A stretch of DNA of 61,883 nt from Spirochaetota bacterium (GCA_003645645.1 QNBH01000001.1:1-61883), one strand, 5' to 3'; numbered from the stretch's first letter, positions 1,574 through 57,909 are shown. Notes: generated from the sequence alone by a model not told the origin. Made by a program: numbers and translations.

Positions 1574-1599
1574 TATGTTGATATTGGATTGACCAAGTG

Positions 1600-1828: not shown

Positions 1829-1856
1829 AATCAATTTTATCAAGAGGCTTGTAAAC

Positions 1857-4902: not shown

Positions 4903-4918
4903 AAAGCAGGAGTTTTTA

Positions 4919-36593: not shown

Positions 36594-36639
36594 ATGTGAC
36601 AGGCGAATATATACGACAATAAGAATCCGGGGAAAAGTT

Positions 36640-38195: not shown

Positions 38196-38224
38196 TTACG
38201 AAATCTTTTCCATTGTGTTATATT
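38196..38224 (+). promoter_or_regulatory. Candidate sigma70-type promoter for tRNA-Ala
   Basis: TTACGA (38196-38201), a 17-nt spacer, then TATATT (38219-38224), 14 nt before the tRNA 5' end. Confidence 0.45.
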
Positions 38225-38237
38225 ATACTTAATAATC

Positions 38238-38310
38238 GGGGGATTAGCTCAATTGGCAGAGCGATAGGTTCGCAATCTATAGGTCAGGGGTTCAAATCCC
38301 CTATCCTCCA
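38238..38310 (+). tRNA. tRNA-Ala (anticodon CGC)
   Basis: Manual cloverleaf. Acceptor GGGGGAT/ATCCTCC with the G3:U70 Ala identity pair. D-stem GCTC/GAGC. Anticodon stem ATAGG/TCTAT with loop TTCGCAA. T-arm AGGGG-TTCAAAT-CCCCT. Discriminator A. CCA is not encoded. Confidence 0.9.
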
Positions 38311-38311
38311 A

Positions 38312-43179: not shown

Positions 43180-43527
43180 ATGCAAAAGGTCTTTAAACAG
43201 TTCGCCCGGGAAGAGGAAGCCCATAAAAGAAAGCTTCTTAATGTCAAGGAAGGAAAGAAATTAAAAGAAGCAGAGAAGAAAATTACAGATTTAAAAATAA
43301 GCGATTATCTTGTAGAAAGACAACCTTCACCCGATATGGACTATCAGGATGCCCTTATTCTTGCCATGCAAAAGGAGAAAGCTTCCTGCAGGCTATACAA
43401 CGTACTGGCCGAATCAGCCACAAATAAGGATCTGCAGAATATTTTTCTATCTCTTGCACAGGAAGCGGCAAAGCACAAATTGAGATTCGAGATAGAATAC
43501 GACCAGGAAATCCTTAAGAAAAACTAG
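43180..43527 (+). CDS. Rubrerythrin/ferritin-like domain protein; the N-terminus is unresolved
   Basis: FAREEEAHKRKL and LAQEAAKHKLRFEIEYD are ferritin-like ExxH pairs. The homologous frame extends upstream to 43054 with no canonical start, and it is in frame with ATG 43021 across a TAA at 43051-43053. Confidence 0.6.
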   Translation: MQKVFKQFAREEEAHKRKLLNVKEGKKLKEAEKKITDLKISDYLVERQPSPDMDYQDALILAMQKEKASCRLYNVLAESATNKDLQNIFLSLAQEAAKHKLRFEIEYDQEILKKN

Positions 43528-44015
43528 AATCCTATCAGCTCAAACAGGGTTTCGCGGACAGATCTGTAAATACTGTTCTCTTTTCCCTTAAGCTCGGAAC
43601 TAAGTTCATCTCCAAAGCGGTCTATTCGGGGTACCTCTATTCCTATAAGTTTAATTTCTGTAGGCAGAGCACATGCCAGTTCCTCTCGCAGCCTGATGGC
43701 TTCGGGCAGATTCATTCCGTGCAGATAAATCTGTGAGGAATGCTGTAAGAGCTCTTCTTTTGAGAAGAGCACCACTGAGCCGGGTTCCATCAGCCCGGTA
43801 GCAACGGAGTCGATTATTATTACTTTGCTGTAGCCACTTATCTCATTAACAAATGCAAGGGGAGAACCTGTAAACTCGCGTATTTCCGGATATTCGATAG
43901 ATTCTTTGCCGGATAATTCCTTTTCAAGCTGTTTCCCTATCAAAATACCTATCCTGTCATTGACAACGATAGGGTTACCCATATAGAGAATTAAAGTTTT
44001 TGATTCAATATTCAT
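43524..44015 (-). CDS. [NiFe] hydrogenase maturation endopeptidase
   Basis: 163 aa; LILYMGNPIVVNDRIGILIG...IIIDSV...YLHGMNL follows the HyaD/HybD/FrhD pattern. It lies directly downstream of the large subunit gene. Confidence 0.8.
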   Translation of the reverse strand: MNIESKTLILYMGNPIVVNDRIGILIGKQLEKELSGKESIEYPEIREFTGSPLAFVNEISGYSKVIIIDSVATGLMEPGSVVLFSKEELLQHSSQIYLHGMNLPEAIRLREELACALPTEIKLIGIEVPRIDRFGDELSSELKGKENSIYRSVRETLFELIGF

Positions 44016-44043
44016 CTGTGTGAAAAAGCCGCCCCGGAGAATA

Positions 44044-45543
44044 TCAACGTTTTATTCTTCTGATCTCCGCGCCGTTCTCGTTGCGGATAACAATTTCCAT
44101 GGGCATCCTGCCTATGGCAGCATGTGTTGCACAGGAGAAGCAGGGATCGTAAGAGCGAAAGCCCATTTCCACCATGTTAAGAATACCGTTACTCACCTCT
44201 CCCTTTTTTATAAGATTTCTGGCAACATTCCGGATATCAATATTCATGGCTCCGTAGTTCTGGGCGCTTGCCACAATGAGATTTAAATCGGTTATAAGAC
44301 CGTTATCATCGGCCTTATAATGGTGGAAGAGAGTCCCCCGTGGTGCTTCTATTACTCCTACCCCCTCACCTTTGATACCTCGACTCAAGGTTCTGTACTC
44401 TTTGCTTAAGATATCTTCGTCATCGGCTAGTTCCTGCAGTCGTTCCGCCGCATAGAGAGACTCGATTGCTCTGGCCCAGTGAAAGGAGAGGGAGTTCTGC
44501 ACCGGTTTTTTCCCCAGAGTCTCGTAAAATCTCTGGTAGGCCTTCTGCGCTTTCGGTGTAGCCATTCCCTCTGCCACATTCATTCTTGACAGGGGAGCCA
44601 CCCGATAAAGCCCACTCTCCTTTCCGTCCGTAAGACCATTCCACCCGACTTTTTTTAGGTAGGGAAACTTCAAGTAAGACCAGGGCACAGGATGCTCTCC
44701 CACATAATCGAGATACTCATCCCAGTCAAACTTCGCAACTTCCTCTCCATCGGGATCAATTACCCTCAGCTTACCACCATAAAAGGTATGCCTGCCATTC
44801 TCATCCACCATCCCCATGTGATAGGAATTGTGATAGTAGAGATCCTTATTTAGAATAATCTCCATATAATCCTTGTTGGAGAGGATGATATCATCGACTA
44901 CCTTCAATGTGAATTCACAAAAATCCACAAGTTTGCCGGCCAGCTCACGGATCCTGTCCCTCTCTTCGACTTTTAAAGGTCTGGAAATACCTCCCGGAAT
45001 ACTGAATACGGGGTGAGTCGATTTCCCCCCTATTATGTTCTCTATTTCTACTGCATATCCCCGGTGTACGATTACCTTCTTTCCGGTCTCAAGACCTACC
45101 GCCTCGATAACACCCAGGATGTTTCTTTTTGCCGGATCTGCAGCAGGTCCTAAGATAAAATCGGGGGCAGGACCCAGTGCATATATATGTTCCAGATGAC
45201 TTTCGAGCATGTGTGCGCAGTATCCGAGTTCCCTGATCTTATGTGCTGCAGGCGGGGGAGGTGCATCGAAGAGTTTGTCCAGCACAAGGGAGGAGGCAAT
45301 ATGATGGGGCCAGGGACATACACCGCAGAGGCGGTTTACAATTCTGGGCATCTCTTCTGCGGCTCTTCCCTTGCAGAACTCTTCAAACCCTCTAAGCTCC
45401 ACTACCTGAAAATAGGTCTCTTCAACGTTTCCCTCGTTGTCGAGAAATATATCGATCTTTGCATGTCCTTCCAGTCTTGTAACCGGTTCTATGTGTATTA
45501 CTCTTTTGTCTGTTTTGTGTGTCTTATCCCATATTTCAGGCAT
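44044..45543 (-). CDS. mvhA: [NiFe] hydrogenase large subunit, Mvh/group-3c-like
   Basis: VTRLEGH, the N-terminal RLCGVCPWPHH (RxCGxC) motif and the C-terminal DPCFSCATH (DPCxxCxxH) Ni-Fe ligand motif. It is adjacent to mvhG and mvhD. Confidence 0.9.
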   Translation of the reverse strand: MPEIWDKTHKTDKRVIHIEPVTRLEGHAKIDIFLDNEGNVEETYFQVVELRGFEEFCKGRAAEEMPRIVNRLCGVCPWPHHIASSLVLDKLFDAPPPPAAHKIRELGYCAHMLESHLEHIYALGPAPDFILGPAADPAKRNILGVIEAVGLETGKKVIVHRGYAVEIENIIGGKSTHPVFSIPGGISRPLKVEERDRIRELAGKLVDFCEFTLKVVDDIILSNKDYMEIILNKDLYYHNSYHMGMVDENGRHTFYGGKLRVIDPDGEEVAKFDWDEYLDYVGEHPVPWSYLKFPYLKKVGWNGLTDGKESGLYRVAPLSRMNVAEGMATPKAQKAYQRFYETLGKKPVQNSLSFHWARAIESLYAAERLQELADDEDILSKEYRTLSRGIKGEGVGVIEAPRGTLFHHYKADDNGLITDLNLIVASAQNYGAMNIDIRNVARNLIKKGEVSNGILNMVEMGFRSYDPCFSCATHAAIGRMPMEIVIRNENGAEIRRIKR

Positions 45544-45562
45544 TCTTCCGTCTCCTTCCTTG

Positions 45563-46570
45563 CTACTCTACTCTTTCCTTTACCACCCGGCCGAGTTGCG
45601 ATTTGGGAAGAGAAAACCTGTAAAAAAGTCCCAGTGGATCGGGAATCTGCATCATAAGTTTCTCTATATCCTCTTCGCTCAACTCTGTCTCTCTGTCGGT
45701 CATTCCGTACACCGAGGCAAGGGCACTCAGCATGGATGCCCCCTGTTCTGTAACAGATGCCGTCGGTCCCATGCACCCCCGGCAGGGCATATTCGCAGCG
45801 GTACAAACCGCCCCGCATCCCGCCCTTGTAGCAGGTCCTAGGCATATAATCCCCTGTTCGAGAAAACATTTCTCCTCGTCAAACGCTATCTCTTGAATCC
45901 TGTACAGCCTGTCCACCTTGATCTCTCCGCTTCGTTTCCTCTCGCACTCATCGCACAGCGTCTTCTCCGATGCAATGATGGATCCTTTGGGTGGCAGGGG
46001 TTTTCCCTCTTCCACAAACTCTTTCACTACTGTGAGAATTTTATTATTGATATCACTGGTCGGAGGACAGGCGGGAACGTAATAGTCCACATCGACAATA
46101 TCATCCAGGGCATATACCTCGTCGTAGAACCGGGGCAGGGTGAGCTCATGGCCTTCTTTATCTAAAGATTTCTCCTCGGGTAAGGTGCCATCGGGATTTA
46201 CCGTGGAAAAGGTTTCTTTATAAACCTTCTTAAATATTGCAATTTTATCTGTTACGTTGGCCAATCCCGGAATACCCCCCATGTGCGCACAGGCGCCATA
46301 AGCAATGAGAATCTGACACTTATCCCTCATTATATGGGCAAACTCTTCGTTGTCCGAGTTTCTGACTGCACCGTGGTAAAATCCTATGGTTATGGATTTA
46401 TCGGGCATTTTTTTGAGATCGTCATATTTTACATCGAGAAGCGTAGGTGAGAAAACCAAATCGGCTACGGAGAGCAGGGTGAAGAGCTCTTCGTTGAAGT
46501 TGACAATGGCAATATCACAGCCTACGCATGAAGCACCCCTTTTAAGTGCAATCTTTATCTTCTCTGCCAT
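45563..46570 (-). CDS. mvhG: [NiFe] hydrogenase small subunit, Mvh-type
   Basis: ASCVGCDIAIVNF, GACAHMGGIPGLAN, and a C-terminal Cys-rich cluster region (CDECERKR..., CLGPATRAGCGAVCTAANMPCRGCMGP). No Tat signal is present. Confidence 0.88.
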   Translation of the reverse strand: MAEKIKIALKRGASCVGCDIAIVNFNEELFTLLSVADLVFSPTLLDVKYDDLKKMPDKSITIGFYHGAVRNSDNEEFAHIMRDKCQILIAYGACAHMGGIPGLANVTDKIAIFKKVYKETFSTVNPDGTLPEEKSLDKEGHELTLPRFYDEVYALDDIVDVDYYVPACPPTSDINNKILTVVKEFVEEGKPLPPKGSIIASEKTLCDECERKRSGEIKVDRLYRIQEIAFDEEKCFLEQGIICLGPATRAGCGAVCTAANMPCRGCMGPTASVTEQGASMLSALASVYGMTDRETELSEEDIEKLMMQIPDPLGLFYRFSLPKSQLGRVVKERVE

Positions 46571-46601
46571 ATCTTTTCCCTCGTATTTTTGTTGTATATC
46601 T

Positions 46602-47042
46602 TCATACTGCCTTTCGTTCTCTCCTTTCCAATTTCCCGTATGGACTGGGACCCAATTCCTTTATTCTCTCTACGAAATTGTTAACTACCCGGGCAAACTT
46701 CTCCCCCTCTGCAGCCGATACCCATTCCAGTTGAAACCTATCCTTGTTCAGTCCGAACTGGGTAAGAAGCATCCTGACCAGTGCCATTCTTCTGCGGGTT
46801 CGATAGTTTCCGCCGATATAGTGGCAGTCACCGGGATGACAGCCAAGCACCATCACCCCATCCGCCCCTTTTCTAAAGGCATGCAGAATCCACTCCGGAT
46901 CGACTCTGGCCGAACACAGCGTTCTTATAACCCGGAAATGGGGACTTATCTGGAAACGGCTTACTCCTGCAAGATCGGCGCCTGCATAAGCACACCAGTT
47001 ACAGCAGAATACGAGTATTCTGGGTTTAAACTCCTCACTCAT
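46602..47042 (-). CDS. mvhD: Methyl-viologen-reducing hydrogenase delta subunit (MvhD), copy 2
   Basis: ILVFCCNWCAYAGADLAG...RTLCSARVDP...GADGVMVLGCHPGDCHY is the canonical MvhD/FlpD Cys pattern. Confidence 0.9.
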   Translation of the reverse strand: MSEEFKPRILVFCCNWCAYAGADLAGVSRFQISPHFRVIRTLCSARVDPEWILHAFRKGADGVMVLGCHPGDCHYIGGNYRTRRRMALVRMLLTQFGLNKDRFQLEWVSAAEGEKFARVVNNFVERIKELGPSPYGKLERRERKAV

Positions 47043-47054
47043 TTCTCTCTCCTC

Positions 47055-50000
47055 TTAACCGAGTAGTGCGTCGATTTCCGCCAAAATCTGATCGCTTTTA
47101 AAACCCTTCTGCTCCATTGCCCCACTCGGACAGGCGGCCACACAGCAACCGCATCCCTTACAGATTGCCTCGTTTAATTTCACCACCTTTCCGCCTTCCT
47201 GTCTCTCCACCACTTCCAGGGCTTTATACTCACAAACCCCCACACATATTCCGCATCCGTCACAGAGATCCTCGTTTACAGCAGCAATGGTCGGTTCTGC
47301 CTCGTATTTGCTCTTGCTTAAGATGGTGGCCGCTCTGGCAGCCGCTGCTTTGCCCTGGGTAATGCTTTCCGATAGGGTCTTTGGATTATGCGCCATTCCT
47401 GCCAGAAAAACTCCTTCGGTGGCGAAATCAACGGGCCTTAACTTTACATGTGCTTCCAGAAAAAAGCCGTTTTCTCCCAGGGGAACCTTGAACTGCTGGG
47501 AAATAAGCTCGTTTTCCGCTCCGGGATCGATTCTCGAAGCAAGTACCAAAATCTGGGGAAATATTTCTACCTTATCTCCTGTAAGAGTGTCTGTTACAGT
47601 TATCTGCAATTCATGGTTCTTCTTCTCCACAAGGGGCTTTTCATCTTCGTTGTAACGGATGAATACGACTCCCGACTCCCTTGCTTCCCTGTAATAACGC
47701 TCGGAAAAACCGTAAGTTCGCATATCACGGTAAAGAACGTACACCTCCGAAGAAGGTCTCTGCTTCTTTAAATAAAGGGCATTCTTTACAGTCTCCATAC
47801 AGCAGACCCTGCTGCAGTACAGGTGCCCTTTCTCTCTGGAACCCACACATTGAATAAAAGCCACCCGTTCGGGCAAATTATCGGAAGGAGTTTGTTCCAG
47901 GAATGTTTCGAACTCAAGCCCCGTTTTAATCCTTGCATCTTCTCCGTAGAGATATTCCCGGGGGACTGATTCCCTGGCTCCGGTAGCTATTACCACCGCT
48001 CCGTGCTCTATAGTAATAGGCCCCTTACTGTTGCCGCTTAAGGTTGTTTTAAAGTTTCCTACAAATCCTTCTACTGTTTGTACCTGAGTTCCCACGTGCA
48101 CTATGATCCCCCGATGATTGGTCACGCTGCTTATCATACGCTTGATAAGAGGCTGGGTCTCTCCTCCATCCACCGTACGAAGCAACTTTCTGAGATTTCC
48201 ACCCAACTGAGCCTCTTTTTCCACCAGCTCCACCGAAAAGCCCTGATTGGCCAGAGAAAGTGCGGCCGACATTCCTGCAGGTCCTCCTCCTATAACCAGT
48301 GCTTTCTGGTTAACATCGAGGGGTATGCTGGGCAGAGGCTCGATGAGCCTTGCTTTTGCCACCGTCATTCTTAAGAGGTCTTTGGCTTTTTCTGTGGCCT
48401 CTCTGGGAAAGTTCATGTGTATCCAGGAACACTGGTCTCTTATGTTTGCCATCTCAAAGAGATGTCGGTTCAACCCTGCTTCTCGAATGGTCTCCTGGAA
48501 TAGAGCTTCATGGGTTCTGGGGGTACAGGAGGCGACAACCACCCGGTTTAGATTATGCTCTTTAATAATCTCTTTTATATGTTCCTGGGTATCCTGGGAA
48601 CATGTATAGAGATTATCTTCTGCATATACAACTCCCGGGAGGGTTTTAACATACTCGGTTACATCGGGCACATCAACAATCCCGCCTATGTTTATACCGC
48701 AATGACACACAAAAACTCCGATCCGCAGTTCCTGGCCGGCTACATCCTTTTCCGGCGGATATCTCTTCTCCTCAATTTCGGTCCACCTCGTCTCTGCAAG
48801 TACTTCGGAAGCCGCAGCAGCACCGGCACTGGCCTGCATGATTGTTTCTGGAATATCCTTCGGTTCCTGCGCAGGTCCGCAGATAAAGTAGCCGGGAACC
48901 TTGGTTTCAACCGGATTAAAAGGGTCGGAAGCAATAAATCCGTAGCAATTTAAGGGTATATGAAGAGCCTCTGAAAGCTTGAGGATGCTCTCCCCGCCCT
49001 CAAACCCCACAGAAAGCACCACCATGTCAAAATCTTCGAAGCAGGTCTTGCCTTTATCGTCTTCGTAACGTACCAGAAGTTTACCGGTAGTTTTATCCCA
49101 TTCCACCCCGGAAACCCGCGCCTTTATAAACCTTACACCATACTCCTGCTTTGATCTTTCGAAATAGCGGTCAAAATCCTTTCCATGGGCGCGAATATCC
49201 ATATAAAATATTGTGGGCTCTATCTGTTTCTCATGCTCCCTGGCAATTACTGCCTCTTTTATTGCATACATACAGCATACAGAGGAGCAGTGCTCGTTCC
49301 CGATTTTTAAATCCCTCGAACCTACACACTGGATAAAGGCAATCTTCTCAGGAGTTTTCCCGTTGGATAATCTCTTTATGTGGCCGGAAAATGGACCCGA
49401 AGCGGAGAGGATCCTCTCAAACTGGATGCTGGTTACCACATCCGGATATTTACCGAAACCCAGGTGATACATGGCAGATGGGTCATACTTTTCACATCCT
49501 GTAGCAAGCAAGACCGAACCTACCTTAAGCTCGATCGACTCCTCTTTCATGGAGTGATCAATGGCATCGGCTTCACAGTTGGAGACACATTGAAGACATT
49601 CCGAGCATACACCGCAATTGAGACACCTCATCGCCTCTTCTACAGCCTGCTTATCATCAAAACCGATTTCAACCTCATCAAAGCCCGATAGACGCTTCTT
49701 CATATCTGCTTTGGGTACCTGTAACCTCTGTTTTCTATCCCTGTACTCTTCCGGTGTAAGGGCTGTTTCTACATAGAGCTCATCCCGCCCCTCTCTGAGG
49801 TCTCTCCCTTCCAGATAGCGCTGTATGGACTCTGCCGCTGCATGGCCATGCGCTATGGCATGAACCACCAGCCCTCCGGCACCTGCAATATCACCGCCTG
49901 CAAAAACCCCATCCTCTCCTGTCTCCAGAGTGATCGGATCAACCCTGAATAAACCTCTATCAAGGTTCAATTTACCCGAAGCCCCCTCTGTAACAGTATC

Positions 50001-51503
50001 TTCGGCCTCCTGGCCGAGTGCAGTAATAACAGCATCCACGGCAAAACTTTCCGTCTCACCTTCCACAGGGACGGGTCTTCTTCTGCCCGTACTGTCGGGG
50101 AATCCCAATCTCATCCTGTTACAGATGAGTTCGCTTGCCTTTCCCTTTTTGCCTGTTATCTCTTTCGGCGAAAGGAGGAACTTTAACCCCGCACCCTCTG
50201 CCTCCGCTTCGACTATCTCTTCTTCCAGGGCAGGCATCTCTTCTCTTCTCCGCCTGTAAACTATAAATGCTTCTCTTGCACCAAGACGCAGCATGGTACG
50301 AACAGAATCGATTGCGGTATTGCCTCCTCCTATCACTGCAACCCGTTTGCCTGTAAATGTATTTCTATGTTTTCCCTCTGTTATATCTCTCAACAGCTCT
50401 ACTGCCGGGTAAACGCCTTCCAGTTCTTCTCCTTTAATGCCGAGTCTTCTGCTTTTCTGAGTTCCTGCTGCAATAAAGACGGCCTTAAAGCCCTGGCTCT
50501 TTAGCTTTTCTGTGGTAAGATTCTTTCCAAATGGGCTATTGTACTTAATCTCGACGCCGGTTTTCCGGATTATTTCTACCTCATAATCGATTACATCTTC
50601 CGGGAGCCGGTAACGGGGAATGCCGTATCTGAGCATCCCTCCTGCTTTTTTTCGTGCCTCGAAAATAACGGGTCTGAATCCCTCTTTAGCAAGATCGTAG
50701 GCGGCCGTAAGACCGGCCGGTCCCGATCCGATAATGGCTACTTTTTCTCTGTTTTGAGTTACCTTTGTACTTTCTACATCAGGTTCTATACCCTGCTGTT
50801 TTTGCCTCATCTCCCAGTCCGAGGCAAACCTTTTTAGTGCACGAATCTGGATAGCCTGATCGAGATTGGCCCTGTTACACTCATCTTCACAAAGGCCACA
50901 TACTCTGCCGCAAATCGCAGGAAGGGGAATTCTCTCTCGTATGAGTTTTACCGCTTCGTCAAACTTTCTCTCCCGGATGAGAGCAACATACCCATGGGCA
51001 TTACATCCCGCCGGACAGGCTGCAGAGCAGGGAGATTTTCCCTTTTTTTCTATTGCAAAAACGTTGGGTGCCGCCTGAGGAAAAGGACGGTAGATGGCTT
51101 TCCGGGTAGAGAGTCTCTCATTGAACTCATCGGGCATTTCAACGGGACAGTACTTCTCACATTCACCACATCCCGTGCATTTATCTTCGTCGATATACCT
51201 GGGATATTTACGGATACGGACTGTAAAATCACCGGGATTACCGCTTATCTCCTCCACCTCGGAAAGGGTTAGAAGGTTTATGTTTAAGTGCCTGGCACAA
51301 TCTACGAGTTTAGGAGACATGATACACATGGCACAATCGTTGGTGGGGAAGGTCTTATCCAGTTGAGCCATTATCCCGCCTATGGTGGGAGACTTTTCTA
51401 CAAGATGTACTCGAAAACCAGCCTCAGCAAGATCGAGGGACGCCTGTATTCCTGCAATTCCTCCACCGACAACAAGAACCGATCCGCTTCCATTCCGCTT
51501 CAT
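47055..51503 (-). CDS. Giant HdrA-type flavoprotein (1482 aa): an HdrA core interrupted by an NfnB/GltD-like NAD(P)H module, followed by a second complete HdrA module (HdrL-like)
   Basis: VLVVGGGIAGIQASL...; a GltD-like insert (CPAGCNAHGYV...ICGRVC...VAIIGSGPAGLTAAYDL...GGMLRYGIPRYRLP...VAVIGGGNTAID); the HdrA signatures FIQCVGSRDLKIGNEHCSSVCCMYA and FIQCVGSREKGHLYCSRVCCMETV; the second module starts with RIGVFVCHCGINIGG. Confidence 0.85.
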   Translation of the reverse strand: MKRNGSGSVLVVGGGIAGIQASLDLAEAGFRVHLVEKSPTIGGIMAQLDKTFPTNDCAMCIMSPKLVDCARHLNINLLTLSEVEEISGNPGDFTVRIRKYPRYIDEDKCTGCGECEKYCPVEMPDEFNERLSTRKAIYRPFPQAAPNVFAIEKKGKSPCSAACPAGCNAHGYVALIRERKFDEAVKLIRERIPLPAICGRVCGLCEDECNRANLDQAIQIRALKRFASDWEMRQKQQGIEPDVESTKVTQNREKVAIIGSGPAGLTAAYDLAKEGFRPVIFEARKKAGGMLRYGIPRYRLPEDVIDYEVEIIRKTGVEIKYNSPFGKNLTTEKLKSQGFKAVFIAAGTQKSRRLGIKGEELEGVYPAVELLRDITEGKHRNTFTGKRVAVIGGGNTAIDSVRTMLRLGAREAFIVYRRRREEMPALEEEIVEAEAEGAGLKFLLSPKEITGKKGKASELICNRMRLGFPDSTGRRRPVPVEGETESFAVDAVITALGQEAEDTVTEGASGKLNLDRGLFRVDPITLETGEDGVFAGGDIAGAGGLVVHAIAHGHAAAESIQRYLEGRDLREGRDELYVETALTPEEYRDRKQRLQVPKADMKKRLSGFDEVEIGFDDKQAVEEAMRCLNCGVCSECLQCVSNCEADAIDHSMKEESIELKVGSVLLATGCEKYDPSAMYHLGFGKYPDVVTSIQFERILSASGPFSGHIKRLSNGKTPEKIAFIQCVGSRDLKIGNEHCSSVCCMYAIKEAVIAREHEKQIEPTIFYMDIRAHGKDFDRYFERSKQEYGVRFIKARVSGVEWDKTTGKLLVRYEDDKGKTCFEDFDMVVLSVGFEGGESILKLSEALHIPLNCYGFIASDPFNPVETKVPGYFICGPAQEPKDIPETIMQASAGAAAASEVLAETRWTEIEEKRYPPEKDVAGQELRIGVFVCHCGINIGGIVDVPDVTEYVKTLPGVVYAEDNLYTCSQDTQEHIKEIIKEHNLNRVVVASCTPRTHEALFQETIREAGLNRHLFEMANIRDQCSWIHMNFPREATEKAKDLLRMTVAKARLIEPLPSIPLDVNQKALVIGGGPAGMSAALSLANQGFSVELVEKEAQLGGNLRKLLRTVDGGETQPLIKRMISSVTNHRGIIVHVGTQVQTVEGFVGNFKTTLSGNSKGPITIEHGAVVIATGARESVPREYLYGEDARIKTGLEFETFLEQTPSDNLPERVAFIQCVGSREKGHLYCSRVCCMETVKNALYLKKQRPSSEVYVLYRDMRTYGFSERYYREARESGVVFIRYNEDEKPLVEKKNHELQITVTDTLTGDKVEIFPQILVLASRIDPGAENELISQQFKVPLGENGFFLEAHVKLRPVDFATEGVFLAGMAHNPKTLSESITQGKAAAARAATILSKSKYEAEPTIAAVNEDLCDGCGICVGVCEYKALEVVERQEGGKVVKLNEAICKGCGCCVAACPSGAMEQKGFKSDQILAEIDALLG

Positions 51504-51505
51504 AA

Positions 51506-51994
51506 TTAACCCAACTCCTCAATACCATTAGTCAGTTCTTCCTGAAGTTTTTTTTCCTGAACCGAGGGATCCTCGCCTTTAACCTTAAGCCACATATATT
51601 TTGCCAGCCCATGTCTCAATCTCTGCCCCAGTTCATCAACTTTTTCAATTTTTTCAAGCATCTCGCCTGGTGCATATCCCTGTTCTACCGCCATTTCCCT
51701 GAGCACAGCCATCACATCGGTAAATCTCACATCCTGAGGACATCTGGCGTAGCATGTGTAGCACTGTGTACAGTACCAGAGGAGCTCGGAAGACAGCAGC
51801 TCTTTTTTCATTCCGAGCAGTATATTTCTTATAAACAAACGCGGATTAAACCTCTCATCAATCTCCGACACAGGGCACGATGCCGTGCAGGTCCCGCATG
51901 AGAAACAACGCTTTAAGAATGTCGCTCCCGGTCTGGACGCCACTTCATATTTAAAATCCTCATCTAATCCGGATAGGAGTATATCTTTCACCAT
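51506..51994 (-). CDS. hdrC: HdrC-like 2x[4Fe-4S] protein
   Basis: CFSCGTCTASCPV and CTQCYTCYARCPQ, about 160 aa. It ends 3 nt upstream of the giant HdrA gene. Confidence 0.7.
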   Translation of the reverse strand: MVKDILLSGLDEDFKYEVASRPGATFLKRCFSCGTCTASCPVSEIDERFNPRLFIRNILLGMKKELLSSELLWYCTQCYTCYARCPQDVRFTDVMAVLREMAVEQGYAPGEMLEKIEKVDELGQRLRHGLAKYMWLKVKGEDPSVQEKKLQEELTNGIEELG

Positions 51995-52028
51995 CTTCCT
52001 CCGCTATTTCTTTATTTATCCTTTACAA

Positions 52029-52054
52029 CTGTCGGATACCTTTACCCCCGACAG
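52029..52054 (-). other. Intercistronic hairpin in the only sizeable gap (68 nt) of the 13 kb operon
   Basis: CTGTCGG (52029-52035) pairs with CCGACAG (52048-52054), with a 12-nt loop and no U-run on the transcribed strand. Confidence 0.35.
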
Positions 52055-52062
52055 ATAAGTTT

Positions 52063-53013
52063 TCAGACGCCGTTCGGCCTGGGTAGAAGGTCTGCCGATT
52101 CTACAATCCCCCTTACTGCGTTCTCCCATTCGATCGCCATTATATGTACTCCCGCCACACCCTTCATTTTTCTGAACCTTTTTATCTGTTCAACACAAAA
52201 ATTGATACCCTCTTCTCTGGCATTCTCCGCATCTTCAAACCTTTTAATTACGGAATCGGGAATCCTCACTCCTGCGACACTATCCCTCATGTATCTAAGC
52301 ATACCCAGAGACCTGATCGGAGTTACTCCCGCCAGAATCTTTACCTTCTCGTGAAGTCCGCGGGAGACTACCTCTTCCATCCACTGCTCGAATCTCTCCA
52401 TATCGTAAATACACTGGGTCTGAATAAAATCGACCCCCGCATTTACCTTCTTCTCCAGTCTGTTTACCCTCCATTCCAGGGGATCTGCAAATGGGTTGGC
52501 CGCCGCACCGATCAGAAAACGTGGTTCCCTTATCTCGGCTTTTTTGGAGTTTCTTATCTCTTCTCCGCACTGGAAGATTTTCTCATCCCGCATATCCTTT
52601 ACCATTTTGATAAGCTGGATACTGTCAATATCGTAGACCTGTTTTGCCTGTGGATGATTGCCGAAGCTCTGATGATCTCCTGTGAGGCAGAGCACGTTTT
52701 TAAGACCATTGAGGCATGCACCGAGCAGATCCGCCTGAATTGCAAGACGATTTCTGTCCCGGCAGGTAACCTGGAATATGGGCTCAAGCCCCTTTTCCGC
52801 TACATAAATCCCCGTGCTTATGGAAGATACCCTCACGATGGCCGTCTGGTTGTCTGTAATGTTCACTGCATCAACGGCATCCCTCAATGCTTCTACCTTG
52901 CTGTCTATAACCTCTCTATCGACACTTTTAGGGGGGCCGAGTTCTGCAGTAACCACAAACTCACCCCTATCCAGGAGCTTCTCCAGCCTGCTTCCTGCTT
53001 TACTATTCTTCAC
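52063..53013 (-). CDS. metF: Methylenetetrahydrofolate reductase, acetogen/anaerobe-type MetF
   Basis: FVVTAELGPPKS...NITDNQTAIVR...CLTGDHQSFGNHP...GVDFIQTQCIYD is colinear with the MTHFR TIM-barrel. It is followed by metV. Confidence 0.88.
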   Translation of the reverse strand: MKNSKAGSRLEKLLDRGEFVVTAELGPPKSVDREVIDSKVEALRDAVDAVNITDNQTAIVRVSSISTGIYVAEKGLEPIFQVTCRDRNRLAIQADLLGACLNGLKNVLCLTGDHQSFGNHPQAKQVYDIDSIQLIKMVKDMRDEKIFQCGEEIRNSKKAEIREPRFLIGAAANPFADPLEWRVNRLEKKVNAGVDFIQTQCIYDMERFEQWMEEVVSRGLHEKVKILAGVTPIRSLGMLRYMRDSVAGVRIPDSVIKRFEDAENAREEGINFCVEQIKRFRKMKGVAGVHIMAIEWENAVRGIVESADLLPRPNGV

Positions 53014-53672
53014 GGTTGTATATCCTCTCTTAAGAGCTTTCTCGGTCCACCATCATGTGCCCTGGACCAGTCCCTGGGAGGTTGATTCGTCATCATGTTC
53101 TGAAGCATGTTTAACTTTTTAAGCCGTTCGTAAATAAGATACCAGCCACATTCTGTATTCAGCGGATCAATCTCGCACATTCCGTTCTCCGAACCCCCGC
53201 AGGGACCGTTCATAAGGCCCTTTGAGCATCTCGTTTTCGGACATATCCCACCTGTAATATCGAGCATACAATCACCGCACCCCAGACACCTTTCGAGCCA
53301 GTATCCCGCTCCCTCATTACTGCCTATGAAATGGGTGTTTAGCCCGGGTATTACGAGCTTACCTTCGAAATAATCGGAAAGCATCTGAACTCCGGCTCCA
53401 CATGCGAGAGAGAGAATCGCATCGCTCTCCTTTACGACCGCCTCTATCTCTTTGAAAAACTCGCGGTCGCACTGTCGCTCGATGGAAAAACCGGTTACCT
53501 CTCCTATTTTTTTATCCGCCATGCGAATGGCGGAACACATCACCTTTACCTCTTTCTCGCCGCCTGCCAGACAAACGGTTACACAGGTGTCGCAACCAAG
53601 CACGAGAAGTTTTTCCACTTCCGGAAGTTTTTTGAGTATCTCTCCTATGGGTTTCTGCTCCGCAACTATCAT
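53010..53672 (-). CDS. metV: MetV (MTHFR C-terminal-domain / zinc-ribbon Fe-S protein)
   Basis: LVLGCDTCVTVCLAGG...ACGAGVQ...CLGCGDCMLDITGGICPKTRCSKGLMNGPCGG. ATGA overlaps occur at both ends. Confidence 0.85.
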   Translation of the reverse strand: MIVAEQKPIGEILKKLPEVEKLLVLGCDTCVTVCLAGGEKEVKVMCSAIRMADKKIGEVTGFSIERQCDREFFKEIEAVVKESDAILSLACGAGVQMLSDYFEGKLVIPGLNTHFIGSNEGAGYWLERCLGCGDCMLDITGGICPKTRCSKGLMNGPCGGSENGMCEIDPLNTECGWYLIYERLKKLNMLQNMMTNQPPRDWSRAHDGGPRKLLREDIQP

Positions 53673-54049
53673 GACACTCCTACCTTCCCGGCAAAATCGT
53701 TAATAGCACTGTAGAGTCTCTTCCCTTCGTCCGGGCCGAAAGTCTGCATCTCAATATGTTTTCCTTCGATGCCCGCATCGCTTAAGAGCTTCTTTATTCT
53801 CTTAATCCGCCTCAAGGCCCTCTTATTTCCGTCGAGGTATTTGCAGTTCTCCTCTCTGCAACCTGCTACAAATATCCCCCGAACTCCGTTTTGAAGGGTC
53901 TCCATAAGCATAACGTCGTTTATTCTTCCGGTACAGGGTAGCTCGAAAGTGCAAACCCCGGAAGGCAGGCGGAATCCTTCACTGCTCATTTTCTGCAGTG
54001 CCTTTCTGCCTCCCTCCGAACAGTATATTATCAACAAAGACTCTTCCAT
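53669..54049 (-). CDS. mvhD: MvhD-like protein, copy 1
   Basis: LIIYCSEGG...ELPCTGRINDVMLMETLQNGVRGIFVAGCREENCKY. Confidence 0.85.
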   Translation of the reverse strand: MEESLLIIYCSEGGRKALQKMSSEGFRLPSGVCTFELPCTGRINDVMLMETLQNGVRGIFVAGCREENCKYLDGNKRALRRIKRIKKLLSDAGIEGKHIEMQTFGPDEGKRLYSAINDFAGKVGVS

Positions 54050-54062
54050 AAGTAAAACTCCT

Positions 54063-55658
54063 TTATCCCAGAGCCCTTATTCCCTGGTAAAGCGATTCTC
54101 CGGTCAGGTTCCTTAACTGAATCGCCTCGGCAGGGCACTCCGCTGCACAGCTCCCACAGCCCTGACAGACTGTGCGTAAAACCTTGGCTACCCGGCTTTC
54201 GCTGTCTGTAGTCATGGCTTTAAAGGGGCATACTCTGACACAGGTCAGACAGTAAACGCACTTATCTTCGTCCACAACGGGAATATGCTCATTAACCGCT
54301 ATACCTGCGGTTGAGAGTCTAGCTCTGACTGAGAAGAGAAGAGAAGCTATGCTATTGTCACCGGTGGGGTAAGCAACAAAAACTCCCGGCCGGTTTGTTT
54401 CGTTTGGAAGCCTCCACAGTGAATCGGGCTGGGGGTACCTGTCACTTATTGTAAGCAGTTCCAATGCCTCGGCAAAATTCTTTGACCGGGGAGAAAGTAT
54501 AGACCTTCCGGGGATAACCAGAATATCGGGTTCCTTAATTAAGAACTTATCTCCTGTGTAGAGATCGGTACCTTCGATCTCAAAATCTCCATAGTTGTTT
54601 TTGAGAGTTAGATCTTCTAAGTATTTGAAAAAGATAATTCCCTGCTCACGGCATTCATCGTATAGCTCCTGTGCTCCGGAAACACTGACCTTTGCATTTT
54701 TCATAAGGATCCTTACTTCCGATGCAAACCTTCTCTTTATATATTTTCCGGCCAGGAGCACATCCTTAAAAACCTCTGGTGATGTATCCGCAGCATAATC
54801 GAGGAGAAAAACCACCTCTCCCTTTAACGGTTCTCCGCAAACAATTTTTCCATAGAGATCGGTAAGGTTTAAGGCACCGGTTTCACGGCTCTGTTCCTCC
54901 TCTCTTTCGGGAGCGATAACCACCGTACCGAACTTTCTCTTCTCTCCGCTTTTAAAAGTAAAAACAAAACCATCTTCCACGGTTTCAAAGCTTAAAAATG
55001 CATCGGAAGGTAAGAACCGGACATTCTTAAATCCGGCAACTCTATTTCTCTCGCTTTTTCTCCTCTCATCGGCGGAAACAACCGAAGAAAGCCCCCTCTG
55101 ATCGGGTCTGCCAAAGTGTTGTGAGAAAAGTCCGGGAGAAAGGAACTGTTCCCCTGTCTCAAGCACCTCTACAGAAATATCTTCTTCCGCAAGTGCCCTT
55201 GCGGTGCGCAGAGCGGTAATGCCATCACCGTAGACAAGTATCCCCTCTGCCGGCTTGATTCTCTCCTCTTCATAGGGCTCTGCGTGGTAGAGCAGCGTAC
55301 CCATCGATAATATCTTACAGACCAGAAGTTCTTCGAGATTTACCTTATCCGGGTAGAGATCGTAGAGATCTGCCTTTACATCAAAGCTCCTAAACTCACC
55401 ATTTTTAAGCCCTAATCTCTCCTTTATTTTGCTGTAGATGCCCCTTTCTTCCAGAAGAGAACAACCTCCAAACAGGATCTTTCTGCCTTTGTAAGCATCC
55501 AGAAACTCCACTCCCGAATCACAGGCCTTATTAACCAGAAGAAAATCCTCGATCACTTCGCTTTTCTTAAGATTCGTCTTAAGCTCGTCGTACTTTATTT
55601 TGCTTCCGTTCCTGCAACCATGATCGCAAAGTACTGCTACAATTTTCTTATCGTTCAT
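54063..55658 (-). CDS. HdrA-related NAD(P)/FAD-binding-like protein with a C-terminal 2x[4Fe-4S] ferredoxin domain
   Basis: The N-terminus IVAVLCDHGCRNG parallels the IGVFVCHCGINIGG of HdrA N-domains. A GxGxxA site is present (VYGDGITALRTA). The C-terminus has CVYCLTCVRVCPF and CQGCGSCAAECPA. It lacks the QCVGSR...VCC signature. Confidence 0.55.
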   Translation of the reverse strand: MNDKKIVAVLCDHGCRNGSKIKYDELKTNLKKSEVIEDFLLVNKACDSGVEFLDAYKGRKILFGGCSLLEERGIYSKIKERLGLKNGEFRSFDVKADLYDLYPDKVNLEELLVCKILSMGTLLYHAEPYEEERIKPAEGILVYGDGITALRTARALAEEDISVEVLETGEQFLSPGLFSQHFGRPDQRGLSSVVSADERRKSERNRVAGFKNVRFLPSDAFLSFETVEDGFVFTFKSGEKRKFGTVVIAPEREEEQSRETGALNLTDLYGKIVCGEPLKGEVVFLLDYAADTSPEVFKDVLLAGKYIKRRFASEVRILMKNAKVSVSGAQELYDECREQGIIFFKYLEDLTLKNNYGDFEIEGTDLYTGDKFLIKEPDILVIPGRSILSPRSKNFAEALELLTISDRYPQPDSLWRLPNETNRPGVFVAYPTGDNSIASLLFSVRARLSTAGIAVNEHIPVVDEDKCVYCLTCVRVCPFKAMTTDSESRVAKVLRTVCQGCGSCAAECPAEAIQLRNLTGESLYQGIRALG

Positions 55659-56863
55659 TTTACCTGCACTCTCTCTTCCAGATAAGATAGAACTTCTCCG
55701 GTTACGCCGGTAGCATCCTCAATACAATCCTCTATTCTCATGGGTTGCTTACAAGCTCCGGTAACGAATACTCCTCCCATTCCGTTCATTGCATATAAGA
55801 AGCCGCTTTTATCGAGTGAAAGTCCTGTCATTTTTGCCAGCGCTTCGTTTTTATCTCCAGGGGCAATCCCGTTTGAAAGCACAACAAGGTCGTAAGCCTC
55901 TTCTTTATCTTTTTGCTCGGTAATGGATTCGTATCTAACAACGGGCCTATCAGCTCTGTCAACAGAAAAGGTAATGGGGTTGCTGTTGATAAAATTGACT
56001 TTCCTCGAAACATCGCCGAAAAATGACTCAAAATCCTTACCGAAGTGCTGAATGTCCATGTAGTAAAAATCGATTTCGGTATGGGGAAACTCATCTTTAA
56101 GTCTTCCTGCCATTTGCAAGGCATAAGCACAACAGACACGGGAACAGTATTCTCCTCCTTCTGTTACGTTGCGGGAACCTACACACTGGAGAAAGGCTAT
56201 CCTTTTACAATCCGATTTTTTTACGACTCCCGGCAAGTAATTCTCGGTGTAAAAAAGTTCTTCCAGATCGCTTCCCGTTATTATGCGGGGACTCTCTCCG
56301 TAACTCCATTTCCGATTCACAGAAGGATCGAAGGGCTTGAATCCGCTTGCTATGACAAGACAGTCTGCATGGATGCTTTCCCTCATGCTCTCCCTTTTCA
56401 GGGCGATGGCTCCCTCAGGACATACATCGACACATTTCCCGCAGTCGTTACACCCGGAATCGACATAGTATTTCCATCCGGGAGCAATTTTTACGGCGTT
56501 TTCAGGGCAGGCCTCGATGCATTTCCCACACTCTGTACAGAGACGCCAGTCTATAATATTGGGGTGAGTCTCGATCTCAAGCAATATCCCTTCTCCATTA
56601 CTACGAGAAAATCCAGTAAGCTCGGAGGAGAATTGAGACTTTATGTTATGGGTTCTCCTGAAATTCATGACGGCTTCCCTGATAAGACATACCCCGCAGT
56701 GAACGCACGAATCCGAGGCTTTACATCCGTAAAAAAGAGCCCGTCCACCGGGGTAGGGGTTTCTCTCCACGAGTGTAACCTCTATCCCCGCGTTTACCAG
56801 GTTATTGGCAACTGTCAGACCACTTATTCCTGCTCCTATTATACAAACACTGTTACTGCTCAA
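55655..56863 (-). CDS. HdrA-like flavoprotein core with an inserted ferredoxin domain
   Basis: VCIIGAGISGLTVAN, CTECGKCIEACPENA and CNDCGKCVDVCPEGA, and the HdrA signature FLQCVGSRNVTEGGEYCSRVCCAYA. The start is TTG with GAGAGG upstream. Confidence 0.8.
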   Translation of the reverse strand: MSSNSVCIIGAGISGLTVANNLVNAGIEVTLVERNPYPGGRALFYGCKASDSCVHCGVCLIREAVMNFRRTHNIKSQFSSELTGFSRSNGEGILLEIETHPNIIDWRLCTECGKCIEACPENAVKIAPGWKYYVDSGCNDCGKCVDVCPEGAIALKRESMRESIHADCLVIASGFKPFDPSVNRKWSYGESPRIITGSDLEELFYTENYLPGVVKKSDCKRIAFLQCVGSRNVTEGGEYCSRVCCAYALQMAGRLKDEFPHTEIDFYYMDIQHFGKDFESFFGDVSRKVNFINSNPITFSVDRADRPVVRYESITEQKDKEEAYDLVVLSNGIAPGDKNEALAKMTGLSLDKSGFLYAMNGMGGVFVTGACKQPMRIEDCIEDATGVTGEVLSYLEERVQVK

Positions 56864-57075
56864 GGCTTATACCTCTCATGTTTTCACAAATTAATATTAA
56901 CAGTTTAGTGATTGGAAATATTGTATTCTTTAATTATTTTTTGTATTTATTTAATTTTTTTTCAAATTTCGAGGGAAATTTTTATGATTAGCTAGATAAT
57001 AAGCAATTATATTTTGCTTTTCCTGACTATCTATGTAATTCTTTCCCTGAGCCCGATTGGGTCCAAGCGCCGCCC

Positions 57076-57909
57076 TCAGGTGGGAGATAAAACATAGTCT
57101 AACAGAGGCTCAATATAGAGATCGTTAACACTAACACGGGGTTCTCCCAGCTTTCTTCCTGCAAATCCTCCATGAGAGTCCGAACCTGCCGTAGCAATAA
57201 GACCATTTCTATTACAGATCCCCAGGAAATAGCGGGTTTGATCTTCCGCATGGTAGGGAGAGTAACATTCAAGCCCGTCTATCCCCAAATCCAGCATCTT
57301 CTCTACAAGGTTCTCGACTCTGTCCTGCTTGAGACTGTTCCCCGGATGAGCCCAAACAGCCTTCCCTCCTGCTCTGTGTATGGCCTCTACTGTACAGGTT
57401 GTACTTTCGAAAGAAGGATATTCCAATGCAAGTGGGCCTGTAAGAAGGCGTTCGAAAAAATCTTTAACGTTCCTGCAAAGCCCCTTGTCAATAACAAAAT
57501 TTACCGCTTTCCAGCCGCCCCTTGATGGTTCATGCCGATAATCACTGTACTCCTCCCAGTCCAGGGGGAACCCTGCAGAGATAAGTTTCCTTATGGCATG
57601 ATCGTTTACTCCTGCAAGCTTCTTTCTGTTTCTTTCCATCATTCTCAGAAGCACTGGATCTGTAAGGTCGATGCCGTAAGCCAGAACATGATGTATGCCT
57701 CCGTCCAGGGATGTGGTTATCTCAACTGCGCGTATAAAAAGCAAACCCTCTTTAAGAGCAATTCTTTCTGTTTCAGAAACCGCGGAAACGGTATCGTGAT
57801 CTGCCACTGCGAAAAGCCCAATACCTGCTCGTTTTACCTTTTCTACGATCTGTTCAGGATACCAGCATCCGTCGGAAGCTTGCGAGTGAATGTGTAAATC
57901 TACCAGCAT
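57076..57909 (-). CDS. PHP-domain phosphoesterase
   Basis: MLVDLHIHSQASDG...VADHDT...WAHPG...AGSDSHG are the canonical PHP His/Asp motifs. Confidence 0.85.
   Translation of the reverse strand: MLVDLHIHSQASDGCWYPEQIVEKVKRAGIGLFAVADHDTVSAVSETERIALKEGLLFIRAVEITTSLDGGIHHVLAYGIDLTDPVLLRMMERNRKKLAGVNDHAIRKLISAGFPLDWEEYSDYRHEPSRGGWKAVNFVIDKGLCRNVKDFFERLLTGPLALEYPSFESTTCTVEAIHRAGGKAVWAHPGNSLKQDRVENLVEKMLDLGIDGLECYSPYHAEDQTRYFLGICNRNGLIATAGSDSHGGFAGRKLGEPRVSVNDLYIEPLLDYVLSPT

Follow-up and report, generated by a model that had tools for sequence, protein, structure and literature searches.

The methylene-tetrahydrofolate (methylene-THF) reductase of Moorella thermoacetica, a MetFV-HdrCBA-MvhD complex (Mock et al. 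2014, as described in PMC5861303 and PMC9430772) with a counterpart in Sporomusa ovata, was described in 2014, and its electron source, its mode of energy conservation, its second acceptor and the role of HdrB have been left unexplained (PMC5861303, PMC9430772). An eleven-gene locus in a 61,883-nucleotide (nt) stretch of DNA from a Spirochaetota bacterium (GCA_003645645.1, QNBH01000001.1:1-61883; this whole stretch is referred to below as the window) bears on this question. Here genes for MetV, MetF, HdrA-type proteins, two MvhD adaptors and an HdrC homologue are contiguous with those of an Mvh-type [NiFe] hydrogenase, and HdrB is missing. Could such a locus encode an Hdr-type reductase which dispenses with HdrB, and what would supply its electrons?

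In the current study we conclude, with slightly better than even confidence and on the strength of sequence comparison, that the locus encodes a derived, HdrB-less form of the Hdr-type (Moorella-type) methylene-THF reductase, acting in the Wood-Ljungdahl pathway's methyl branch and wired to H2 and to NAD(P)H.

Organisation and conservation of the locus

The eleven open reading frames (ORFs) occupy 43524-56863 on the minus strand (13,340 nt in total; Table 1) in the order hdrA', hdrA'', mvhD1, metV, metF, hdrC', hdrL, mvhD2, mvhG, mvhA, hycI, and the verified coordinates together with the domain profiles bear out the eleven co-directional genes reported by a first-pass annotation. Domains were called by Pfam and NCBIfam profile searches supplemented with sequence matches to the PDB. 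The gene identities proposed earlier held overall, except that the supposed ferredoxin-domain protein proved to be a fourth, degenerate HdrA unit and that the giant HdrA fusion had been read without its NAD(P)H module, a full NfnB/GltD module having been overlooked.

The hdrA'/hdrA'' and mvhD1/metV junctions are ATGA overlaps, the metV/metF junction is a GTGA overlap with GTG as the start codon of metF, hdrA'' is followed by mvhD1 after 13 nt, and the gaps from hdrC'/hdrL onward measure 2, 12 (from hdrL to the start of mvhD2), 31, 19 and 28 nt, while 68 nt between metF and hdrC' form the sole sizeable gap in the cluster. The earlier description of tight junctions and a single 68-nt gap was correct, although its range of 3-31 nt missed the 2-nt gap and its ATGA overlaps included one GTGA. 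An internal promoter or terminator in the 68-nt spacer was rejected, as a scan for promoter-like and terminator-like sites found no match there. In the leader, sigma-70-like matches occur at 57033-57006 (10/12) and at 56965-56936, and these promoter candidates are weak evidence because the number of such matches in the leader region does not exceed that of shuffled sequence; no sigma-54-like motif was found upstream of the cluster, and an Rfam search of the leader and the 68-nt gap returned no riboswitch or other element. The locus is predicted to be a single operon, as part of an explanation that we rate, as a whole, just above an even chance. Misassembly or chimerism was rejected because the same gene order recurs across independent assemblies, one of them an assembly of the same contig with the same 11-gene order.

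The eleven window proteins were mapped onto 81 loci and onto 22 metagenome loci seeded independently with HdrC' (individual loci are cited by L numbers). The order metF-hdrC'-hdrL, without hdrB, was found in 21 of 21 loci readable 5' of hdrC', of which nine are genome loci including the window and 12 are metagenome loci (the window, L002, L004, L007, L010, L065, L074, L076, L079, L082-L091, L098 and L101), which indicates that the contiguity of the two halves of the locus noted earlier is not a matter of chance. Metagenome locus L091 is complete in order, as is L002, whose giant HdrA is 68% identical to HdrL of the window; L004 (Sedimentisphaerales), L074 (Pirellulales) and L076 (Aegiribacteria) keep the full order with hdrA'' and mvhD fused and folD added, L079 resembles these three and ends at a contig edge, and L083 and L085 run from metF through hycI. 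An MvhD2 homologue is present in most related loci, usually directly 3' of hdrL.

The metF/hdrC' junction bears directly on the view that the locus specifies two separate enzymes which are merely co-transcribed, namely a MetFV-MvhD1-HdrA'/HdrA'' reductase and a bifurcating hydrogenase MvhAGD2-HdrL-HdrC' that would reduce NAD(P)+ (the high-potential branch, through the GltD module) and ferredoxin, the two being linked only via soluble ferredoxin and NAD(P)H pools. The sole sizeable gap does fall exactly between the halves, and in L008 an hdrA'-hdrA''-mvhD-metVF block stands on its own, apart from hdrC-hdrB-hdrL and with other genes between. Against this, metF adjoins hdrC' in every readable HdrB-less locus, often within about 27 nt (<= ~27 nt in L004, L010, L065, L076 and L079, distances between stop-to-stop ORFs and hence upper bounds on the gap), and after the loss of HdrB the HdrC' protein would have no evident acceptor in the hydrogenase enzyme. 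We regard two separate enzymes as rather unlikely.

Absence of HdrB

No CCG tripeptide was found in any ORF of at least 100 aa in the six frames of the window, and a profile hidden Markov model (HMM), derived from 46 two-CCG HdrB ORFs at related loci, matched no ORF of at least 50 aa in its 61.9 kb (best E = 5.5, on hdrC'). When run on related loci as a positive control, the CCG regular expression found two-CCG HdrB-sized ORFs directly 5' of hdrL in many of them. An HdrB hidden in the window was rejected by both searches, whose agreement upholds the absence claimed beforehand.

The commonest arrangement in the mapped loci is hdrC-hdrB directly 5' of hdrL; hdrC and hdrB are directly contiguous in 46 genome loci and 8 metagenome loci, and metF almost never stands in front of them. 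None of the 8 metagenome loci with hdrB after hdrC has metF, and among the genome loci only L016 and L017 (weak, 26% match) combine hdrB with an upstream MetF match. HdrB loss thus coincides almost perfectly with the presence of metF in front of hdrC', a further point against two independent enzymes. In a rough neighbour-joining tree the HdrL of the window was placed in an HdrB-less clade. Locus L016 (310-17841), from an Acidobacteriota metagenome-assembled genome (MAG) and of another HdrL clade, reads metV-metF-hdrC-hdrB-x-hdrC-hdrB-x-hdrL-mvhD-mvhG-mvhA-hycI, with two HdrCB pairs. Since this locus holds metVF, hdrCB, hdrL and mvhDGA together, the loss of HdrB is, in the light of this rough tree, a derived feature of one HdrL clade which is not required for hydrogenase linkage, and MetVF is joined to a hydrogenase outside the HdrB-less clade as well.

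An HdrB gene could still be encoded elsewhere in the host genome, beyond the 62 kb examined here, in which case the enzyme would be a conventional HdrABC-type one acting on a heterodisulfide-like or DsrC-like substrate, with MetFV as an extra partner as in Moorella. Type I Acetothermia offer a parallel, as their hdrBC-mvhAG genes lie apart from metVF-hdrA-mvhD (PMC9586279). The operon of every member of the clade lacks HdrB, however, across several phyla; sister clades keep hdrC and hdrB contiguous, and the 10-kb flanks on both sides in L002, L004, L007, L065, L074 and L076 yielded no HdrB. We consider a distant HdrB improbable.

Table 1. Coordinates of the locus and associated features (positions in the window)
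Feature	Description	Position	Strand	Evidence
hdrA'	402 aa, TTG start, 'unit 1'-type HdrA core	55655..56863	-	PDB HdrA 8rvv_A 205 bits
hdrA''	531 aa, degenerate 'unit 2'-type HdrA	54063..55658	-	aligned with 5odc_A residues 421-643, E 2.7e-12
mvhD1	126 aa, predicted [2Fe-2S] adaptor	53669..54049	-	PF02662 FlpD 99 bits
metV	220 aa, Fe-S/zinc subunit of MetFV	53010..53672	-	PF12225 (DUF5981/MTHFR_C) 120 bits; 14 cysteines
metF	316 aa, GTG start, methylene-THF reductase catalytic subunit	52063..53013	-	PF02219 145 bits
metF-hdrC' spacer	68 nt	51995..52062	-	GGAGGA ribosome-binding site
hdrC'	162 aa, 2x[4Fe-4S] HdrC homologue	51506..51994	-	two complete CxxCxxCxxxC motifs
hdrL	1482 aa, tandem HdrA with inserted NfnB/GltD module	47055..51503	-	HdrA2 model 1020 bits; PRK12771 561 bits
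NfnB/GltD-like NAD(P)H:FAD module	inside inserted ferredoxin domain of HdrL unit 1	49611..51038	-	HdrL residues ~156-631 (PRK12771 match ~153-670)
mvhD2	146 aa, predicted [2Fe-2S] adaptor, adjoins hydrogenase genes	46602..47042	-	PF02662 191 bits; VhuD model 130 bits
mvhG	335 aa, [NiFe]-hydrogenase small subunit	45563..46570	-	VhuG model 202 bits; PF01058; Oxidored_q6; 13 cysteines
mvhA	499 aa, [NiFe]-hydrogenase large subunit, Mvh/Vhu type	44044..45543	-	VhuA 392 bits; NiFeSe_Hases
hycI	163 aa, HycI-type maturation endopeptidase	43524..44015	-	PF01750 40.5 bits
Leader	AT-rich, 212 nt, 5' of first gene	56864..57075	-	only promoter-like sites ahead of cluster

HdrL and its NAD(P)H module

HdrL aligns with the HdrA chain 5odc_A in four pieces (692 bits), from which two HdrA units could be delimited, unit 1 comprising residues 1-155 and 632-923 and unit 2 residues 924-1482. 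The cluster motif and Lys409 are common to both units. Unit 1 in addition contains the Cys194/Cys197 pair and the inserted ferredoxin domain; unit 2 contains the N-terminal domain and the C-terminal ferredoxin domain, both absent from unit 1, and is devoid of Cys197 and the inserted ferredoxin domain. Within the window the HdrA signature QCVGSR...CSxVCC occurs exactly three times, reproducing the earlier count.

The module inserted in unit 1 comprises a Fer4_20 domain (156-235), a GSGPAG motif for flavin adenine dinucleotide (FAD) at 259 and a GGGNTA motif for NAD(P)H at 392; it exceeds the PRK12771 cutoff (561 bits against 516) and matches NfnB structures in the PDB (4ylf_B, 286 bits; 5jca_L, 275 bits), so that, judged by these matches, it is a complete NfnB/GltD-type NAD(P)H module. 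The Moorella HdrA, of 1487 aa, oxidises NADH and has a C-terminal unit that begins at residue 922 (PMC9430772), and the domain layout of HdrL is that published for this protein, the comparison being with the published description (PMC9430772). Because HdrL contains the GltD module and the Moorella enzyme uses NADH (PMC9430772), NAD(P)H is, by analogy, a built-in redox partner of HdrL. An NfnA-type partner (a PyrK-like FAD/[2Fe-2S] protein) was not found in the window by Pfam annotation or by tblastn with the HydG/AsrB/PyrK-like protein of L007. The HdrL family is very large: it numbers over 120 protein clusters, with 568 genome loci confirmed in many phyla, and the nearest named relatives of the window protein come from Spirochaetales MAGs, on which basis the host is tentatively taken as spirochaete-like.

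A second, split HdrA pair and the smaller subunits

The domains that are divided between the two units of HdrL are divided in the same manner between HdrA' and HdrA''. HdrA' carries an FAD motif (IIGAGISG), the Cys194/Cys197 pair, an inserted ferredoxin domain of the 2x[4Fe-4S] kind and the signature QCVGSR...CSRVCC, and has neither the N-terminal domain of HdrA nor its C-terminal ferredoxin domain; HdrA'' has an N-terminal-domain-like region, a dinucleotide motif in degenerate form (YGDGITA) and, towards its C-terminus, the 2x[4Fe-4S] ferredoxin domain. In L004 the counterpart of HdrA'' and MvhD1 is a single 659-aa protein with Pyr_redox_2, Fer4 and FlpD domains, and counterparts of 659-661 aa hold the HdrA'' position in L074, L076 and L079. 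The possibility that the 531-aa protein is a plain polyferredoxin was rejected on the grounds of its alignment to HdrA residues 421-643, its N-terminal-domain-like region and the L004 counterpart with Pyr_redox_2 and FlpD domains. By this comparison HdrA', HdrA'' and MvhD1 are a split, partly degenerate paralogue of HdrL and MvhD2, and the repeated complementarity of units 1 and 2 implies that the locus specifies a pair of HdrA pseudo-dimers, with one MvhD for each. That each half has such a set of complementary domains would suit two separate enzymes; however, the HdrA'/HdrA'' pair is seemingly too degenerate to bifurcate alone, as Lys409 is replaced by Gln in HdrA' and HdrA'' has neither the cluster motif nor a clear FAD motif.

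Cysteines 10, 39, 64 and 69 of MvhD1 match C13/14, C43, C68 and C73 of MvhD2 when aligned by eye. The PDB search returned no solved homologue of MetV, and the best matches of MetF were bacterial methylene-THF reductases at only ~51 bits. HdrC' scored 99 bits with TIGR03290, under the cutoff of 160, and its best PDB matches were the HdrC chains 7bkb_C and 5odc_C at 82 bits.

The hydrogenase module

The VhuA model matched MvhA with 392 bits, against 155 bits for the next-best family, and among PDB chains the MvhA chain 5odc_F (385 bits) was nearly equalled by 7t2r_D (377 bits). Both Ni-binding motifs are intact (RLCGVCPWPH at residue 71 and DPCFSCATH at residue 466), and a C-terminal tail of 25 aa is the presumed target of HycI cleavage. 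MvhA therefore matches best the Mvh/Vhu hydrogenases of group 3c, an assignment by best profile and PDB matches, and the Mvh-type identity put forward previously was sustained.

In Anaerolineae (L029, 15523-19946; also L027, L033, L038 and L055) metV and metF lie downstream of hdrL-mvhD and are parted from each other by three genes, which in L029 encode small and large subunits of a non-Mvh [NiFe] hydrogenase (NF033181, 723 bits) and a histidine kinase with a cyclic nucleotide (cNMP)-binding domain; this set may be an H2-sensing unit that regulates metF. A sensory or group 1-like hydrogenase of this kind was rejected for the window, where MvhA matches Vhu/Mvh and its gene sits with mvhD, mvhG and hycI.

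The mapped gene neighbourhoods showed co-occurrence of metF and mvhGA: mvhGA-hycI follow hdrL-mvhD in at least nine metF-bearing loci from at least five phylum-level groups, and in a tenth such locus (L010) mvhAGD are present but convergent. In other relatives the same position is differently filled. FrhB-like, HydB/AsrA-like and HydG/AsrB-like genes replace mvhGA-hycI after hdrL-mvhD in L007, L065, L097 and L098, the same trio follows hdrL-mvhD in L018 and L019, and a second hdrC-hdrB-hdrA set is in the hydrogenase position in L087. Since the hydrogenase is swapped for other modules, H2 would be one of several interchangeable partners. The idea of a hydrogenase-coupled reductase is accordingly retained in part: mvhGA is linked to metF across phyla, but the hydrogenase is facultative.

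The trio of L007 (14960-18063) consists of a FrhB/FdhB-like protein, a HydB/AsrA-like protein (Fer4_22) and a HydG/AsrB/PyrK-like FAD/NAD/[2Fe-2S] protein. The HydB/AsrA-like and HydG/AsrB-like pair corresponds to the diaphorase pair of group 3b sulfhydrogenases and is apparently an alternative module on MvhD.

Proposed electron flow

We propose that H2 would be oxidised (or formed) at MvhA and that its electrons would pass via MvhG and MvhD2 to a flavin of HdrL, as in 5ODC. A Lys409-bearing FAD of HdrL would then split the electron pair, both HdrL units having retained this signature of the bifurcating FAD. The high-potential electron would travel through HdrC' and/or through MvhD1 and the HdrA'/HdrA'' pair to MetV and on to MetF and methylene-THF, and the low-potential electron would exit via an inserted ferredoxin domain to ferredoxin. 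The GltD module would tie NAD(P)H to the same flavin and Fe-S network, as NADH in Moorella, and no thiol/disulfide site would be needed. The net reaction, reversible in principle, would be H2 (and/or NAD(P)H) + methylene-THF + oxidised ferredoxin to methyl-THF + reduced ferredoxin. The standard potentials of H2 (-414 mV), NAD(P)H (-320 mV) and methylene-THF (-200 mV) (PMC5861303) make bifurcation to ferredoxin energetically allowed. The hydrogenase would be a plug-in module on MvhD2, exchanged in some relatives for the sulfhydrogenase beta/gamma-like diaphorase set.

The route into MetV admits of two wirings. Transfer from HdrC' to MetV, with MetFV in place of HdrB as suggested in the first-pass annotation, is favoured by the dichotomy between HdrB and metF, but it is just one possible wiring, MvhD1 to MetV being the alternative. 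An mvhD gene stands directly 5' of metV in the window and in nearly all Hdr-associated metVF clusters examined (counting an HdrA''-MvhD fusion with folD between), and MetFV may thus dock through MvhD1. MetVF is known to interact physically with HdrA, HdrB and MvhD (PMC9430772); in S. ovata pull-downs MvhD bound HdrA, HdrB and MetF, while MetV bound HdrA and MetF but not HdrB (PMC9430772). This near-universal adjacency of mvhD and metV and the pull-downs favour the wiring from MvhD1 to MetV.

Several observations weigh against a bifurcating, hydrogenase-coupled reductase. Membrane fractions of S. ovata do transfer electrons from H2 to methylene-THF (PMC9430772), which speaks for the proposal, but in that organism no co-reduction of ferredoxin or NAD(P)+ was observed while methylene-THF was being reduced with H2 (PMC9430772). 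Roughly half of the close relatives (L007, L065, L087, L097 and L098) lack the hydrogenase. The set hdrC'-hdrL-mvhDGA occurs without metFV in L013 and L073, and HdrA-MvhD-MetVF clusters occur without an adjacent hydrogenase in Acetothermia and Ca. Syntrophoarchaeum (PMC9586279, PMC9012536), distributions that also favour two separate enzymes. The HdrA'/HdrA'' pair may serve in the conduction of electrons only, because Gln occupies the position of Lys409 of 5ODC HdrA in HdrA' and the cluster motif is lost in HdrA'', which is without the Cys197 pair, the inserted ferredoxin domain and the QCVGSR motif. Finally, neither CODH/ACS (CO dehydrogenase/acetyl-CoA synthase) nor fhs nor folD was found in the 61.9-kb window by domain annotation and tblastn, and the pathway context of the host therefore has to be inferred from relatives.

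In its most elaborate form the proposal would unite the ten redox proteins in a single megacomplex, which would hold a pair of HdrA pseudo-dimers and as many as three candidate bifurcating flavins and would couple the oxidation of H2 and NAD(P)H to the reduction of methylene-THF and ferredoxin with no thiol/disulfide chemistry; this form is tentative and on balance doubtful.

Pathway context and direction

Genes of the folate pathway accompany the cluster in relatives. The operon includes fhs as well as folD in L004, L065, L076 and L079 and folD in L007 and L074 (the upstream sequence of L074 is cut off), and in L002, L086 and L091 folD is found a short way upstream, on the opposite strand; fhs and/or folD are thereby part of the operon in Planctomycetota, Aegiribacteria and one actinomycete locus, and the L004 operon also holds an acetyl-CoA synthetase gene.

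It is possible, if still the less probable course, that the enzyme works oxidatively, converting methyl-THF to methylene-THF, pulled by the co-oxidation of reduced ferredoxin with release of H2 (confurcation) at low hydrogen partial pressure; methyl groups would come from donors via URO-D or pterin-binding methyltransferases, and as this concerns direction only it fits either architecture. Two URO-D-family genes are present in the window (3622-6019), although 38 kb from the cluster, and in L002 two URO-D genes directly follow hycI with a Pterin_bind gene and folD upstream, which hints that methyl groups are fed to THF. Methyl-THF oxidation is a recognised thermodynamic problem for which reverse electron flow through Hdr/MetFV has been invoked (PMC10689502), and the window's lack of CODH/ACS and fhs accords with an oxidative role. 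The fhs, folD and acetyl-CoA synthetase genes of the operons named above fit either direction, and the sequence itself sets none.

Other genes of the window

The remainder of the window consists of ordinary chromosomal genes, and its domain annotation includes no methanogenesis genes. An ABC transporter (binding protein, permease and ATPase) is followed within 416-6019 by the URO-D-family genes (3622-4902 and 4874-6019), which are MtaA-type-methyltransferase-like. At 31800-32844 moeA is present as two overlapping ORFs (MoeA_N at 32491-32844, MoCF_biosynth and MoeA_C at 31800-32555), so that the gene may be frameshifted or a pseudogene, or the sequence may be in error. Pieces of a molybdopterin oxidoreductase in different frames (34939-36574, with only a partial PF00384 match) probably represent a decayed gene; their neighbours are a TorD-like chaperone (36556-37287), a 4Fe-4S protein (37327-38052) and MobAB (33577-34542). 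A plus-strand tRNA gene (38238-38310, 69.6 bits) overlaps the 5' end of the ORF of a GGDEF protein (38213-40894), from which it follows that the true start of the latter lies further downstream (860 aa in the ENA call against 893 aa in the ORF). Beyond the PHP-domain gene (57076-57909) that lies upstream of the cluster, a divergent gene at 58057-59835 encodes a B12-binding radical SAM protein (DUF4070), with no link to the cluster established.

Significance

The locus is a concrete, conserved and testable candidate for the electron partner of an Hdr-type methylene-THF reductase. It amounts to a natural experiment, in that one clade dropped HdrB and kept HdrC, an NAD(P)H-binding HdrL and MetFV in a fixed order, and in that the same clade, in several phyla, added a complete Mvh hydrogenase to the operon and in some cases also fhs and folD. 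The proposal predicts an H2:methylene-THF activity in the presence or absence of ferredoxin and NAD(P), a function independent of HdrB and exchangeable donor modules on MvhD, and it provides a defined gene set for heterologous production. It would extend H2-linked folate one-carbon metabolism to little-studied groups, namely spirochaete-like organisms, Planctomycetota, Aegiribacteria, Acidobacteriota and Dehalococcoidales. Were the megacomplex real, HdrB would be dispensable for Hdr-type reductases and H2, entering through a plug-in Mvh module, would be a direct physiological donor, a natural answer to the electron-partner question of the Moorella-type enzyme and a new form of energy conservation at the methylene-THF step in uncultured acetogens of several phyla.

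Comparison with known systems

The locus resembles the Moorella-type reductase in having MetF and MetV, an mvhD directly 5' of metV and HdrC, and its HdrL resembles the Moorella HdrA in length (~1485 aa), in an N-terminal thioredoxin reductase (TrxR)/ferredoxin unit split by a GltD NAD(P)H domain and in a C-terminal HdrA unit from residue 922-924. It differs in the absence of HdrB, in the position of metVF (5' of hdrC', rather than 3' of mvhD as in Moorella), in the extra HdrA'/HdrA''/MvhD set and in the mvhG-mvhA-hycI genes after the second mvhD. With the methanogen MvhADG-HdrABC complex (5ODC) it shares MvhA, MvhG, MvhD, HdrA-type units and HdrC with intact cofactor motifs, MvhA and HdrL matching the chains of that structure best or near best (385 and 692 bits). 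Unlike 5ODC, the window has no HdrB and so no non-cubane cluster site for a heterodisulfide, its HdrA takes the form of pseudo-dimers, either fused or split, MetFV and an NAD(P)H module come in addition, and the host is bacterial and the window without methanogenesis genes. As HdrB, a defining feature of both the Moorella-type reductase and Mvh-Hdr, is lacking, the system is best regarded as a variant that is a member of neither and calls for no new category.

Relevant passages on Desulfobacterium autotrophicum and Syntrophobacter fumaroxidans (PMC2702500, PMC5947623) describe the same fusion of HdrA with glutamate synthase, always followed by mvhD; the function of this HdrL-MvhD in sulfate reducers and syntrophs is given there as unknown, with NADH-linked bifurcation or confurcation suspected. 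In those passages the genes accompany hdrABC, dsr or fdh genes with no adjacent MvhA or MetFV described, and for the Syntrophobacter HdrABC/HdrL cluster the cited passage states that MvhA is absent (PMC5947623). The NfnB-inserted HdrA9-11 of ANME-1 is not clustered with MetF (PMC9012536). Of the NfnAB transhydrogenase, the NfnB-like domain is represented in HdrL and the NfnA partner was not found in the window.

In the literature searched we found no description of a contiguous hdrA'-hdrA''-mvhD-metVF-hdrC'-hdrL-mvhDGA-hycI operon, an earlier description being not fully excluded, nor of a clade-wide loss of HdrB with metF-hdrC' adjacency, of exchangeable donor modules on HdrL-MvhD or of a split HdrL paralogue. 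The earlier statement that no complex of this composition has been described agrees with this search, but the idea of joining Mvh, MetVF and Hdr is older, as an Mvh-coupled MetVF-HdrA-MvhD was already proposed from type I Acetothermia genomes (PMC9586279). There too a cytoplasmic group 3c Mvh hydrogenase is linked to an Hdr-associated MetVF in an acetogen (PMC9586279); in Acetothermia the genes form two loci and HdrBC is present (PMC9586279), whereas those of the window are contiguous, lack HdrB and include an HdrA of the HdrL type. The component parts are all known, and the concept is an extension of the known modular biology of Hdr and Mvh.

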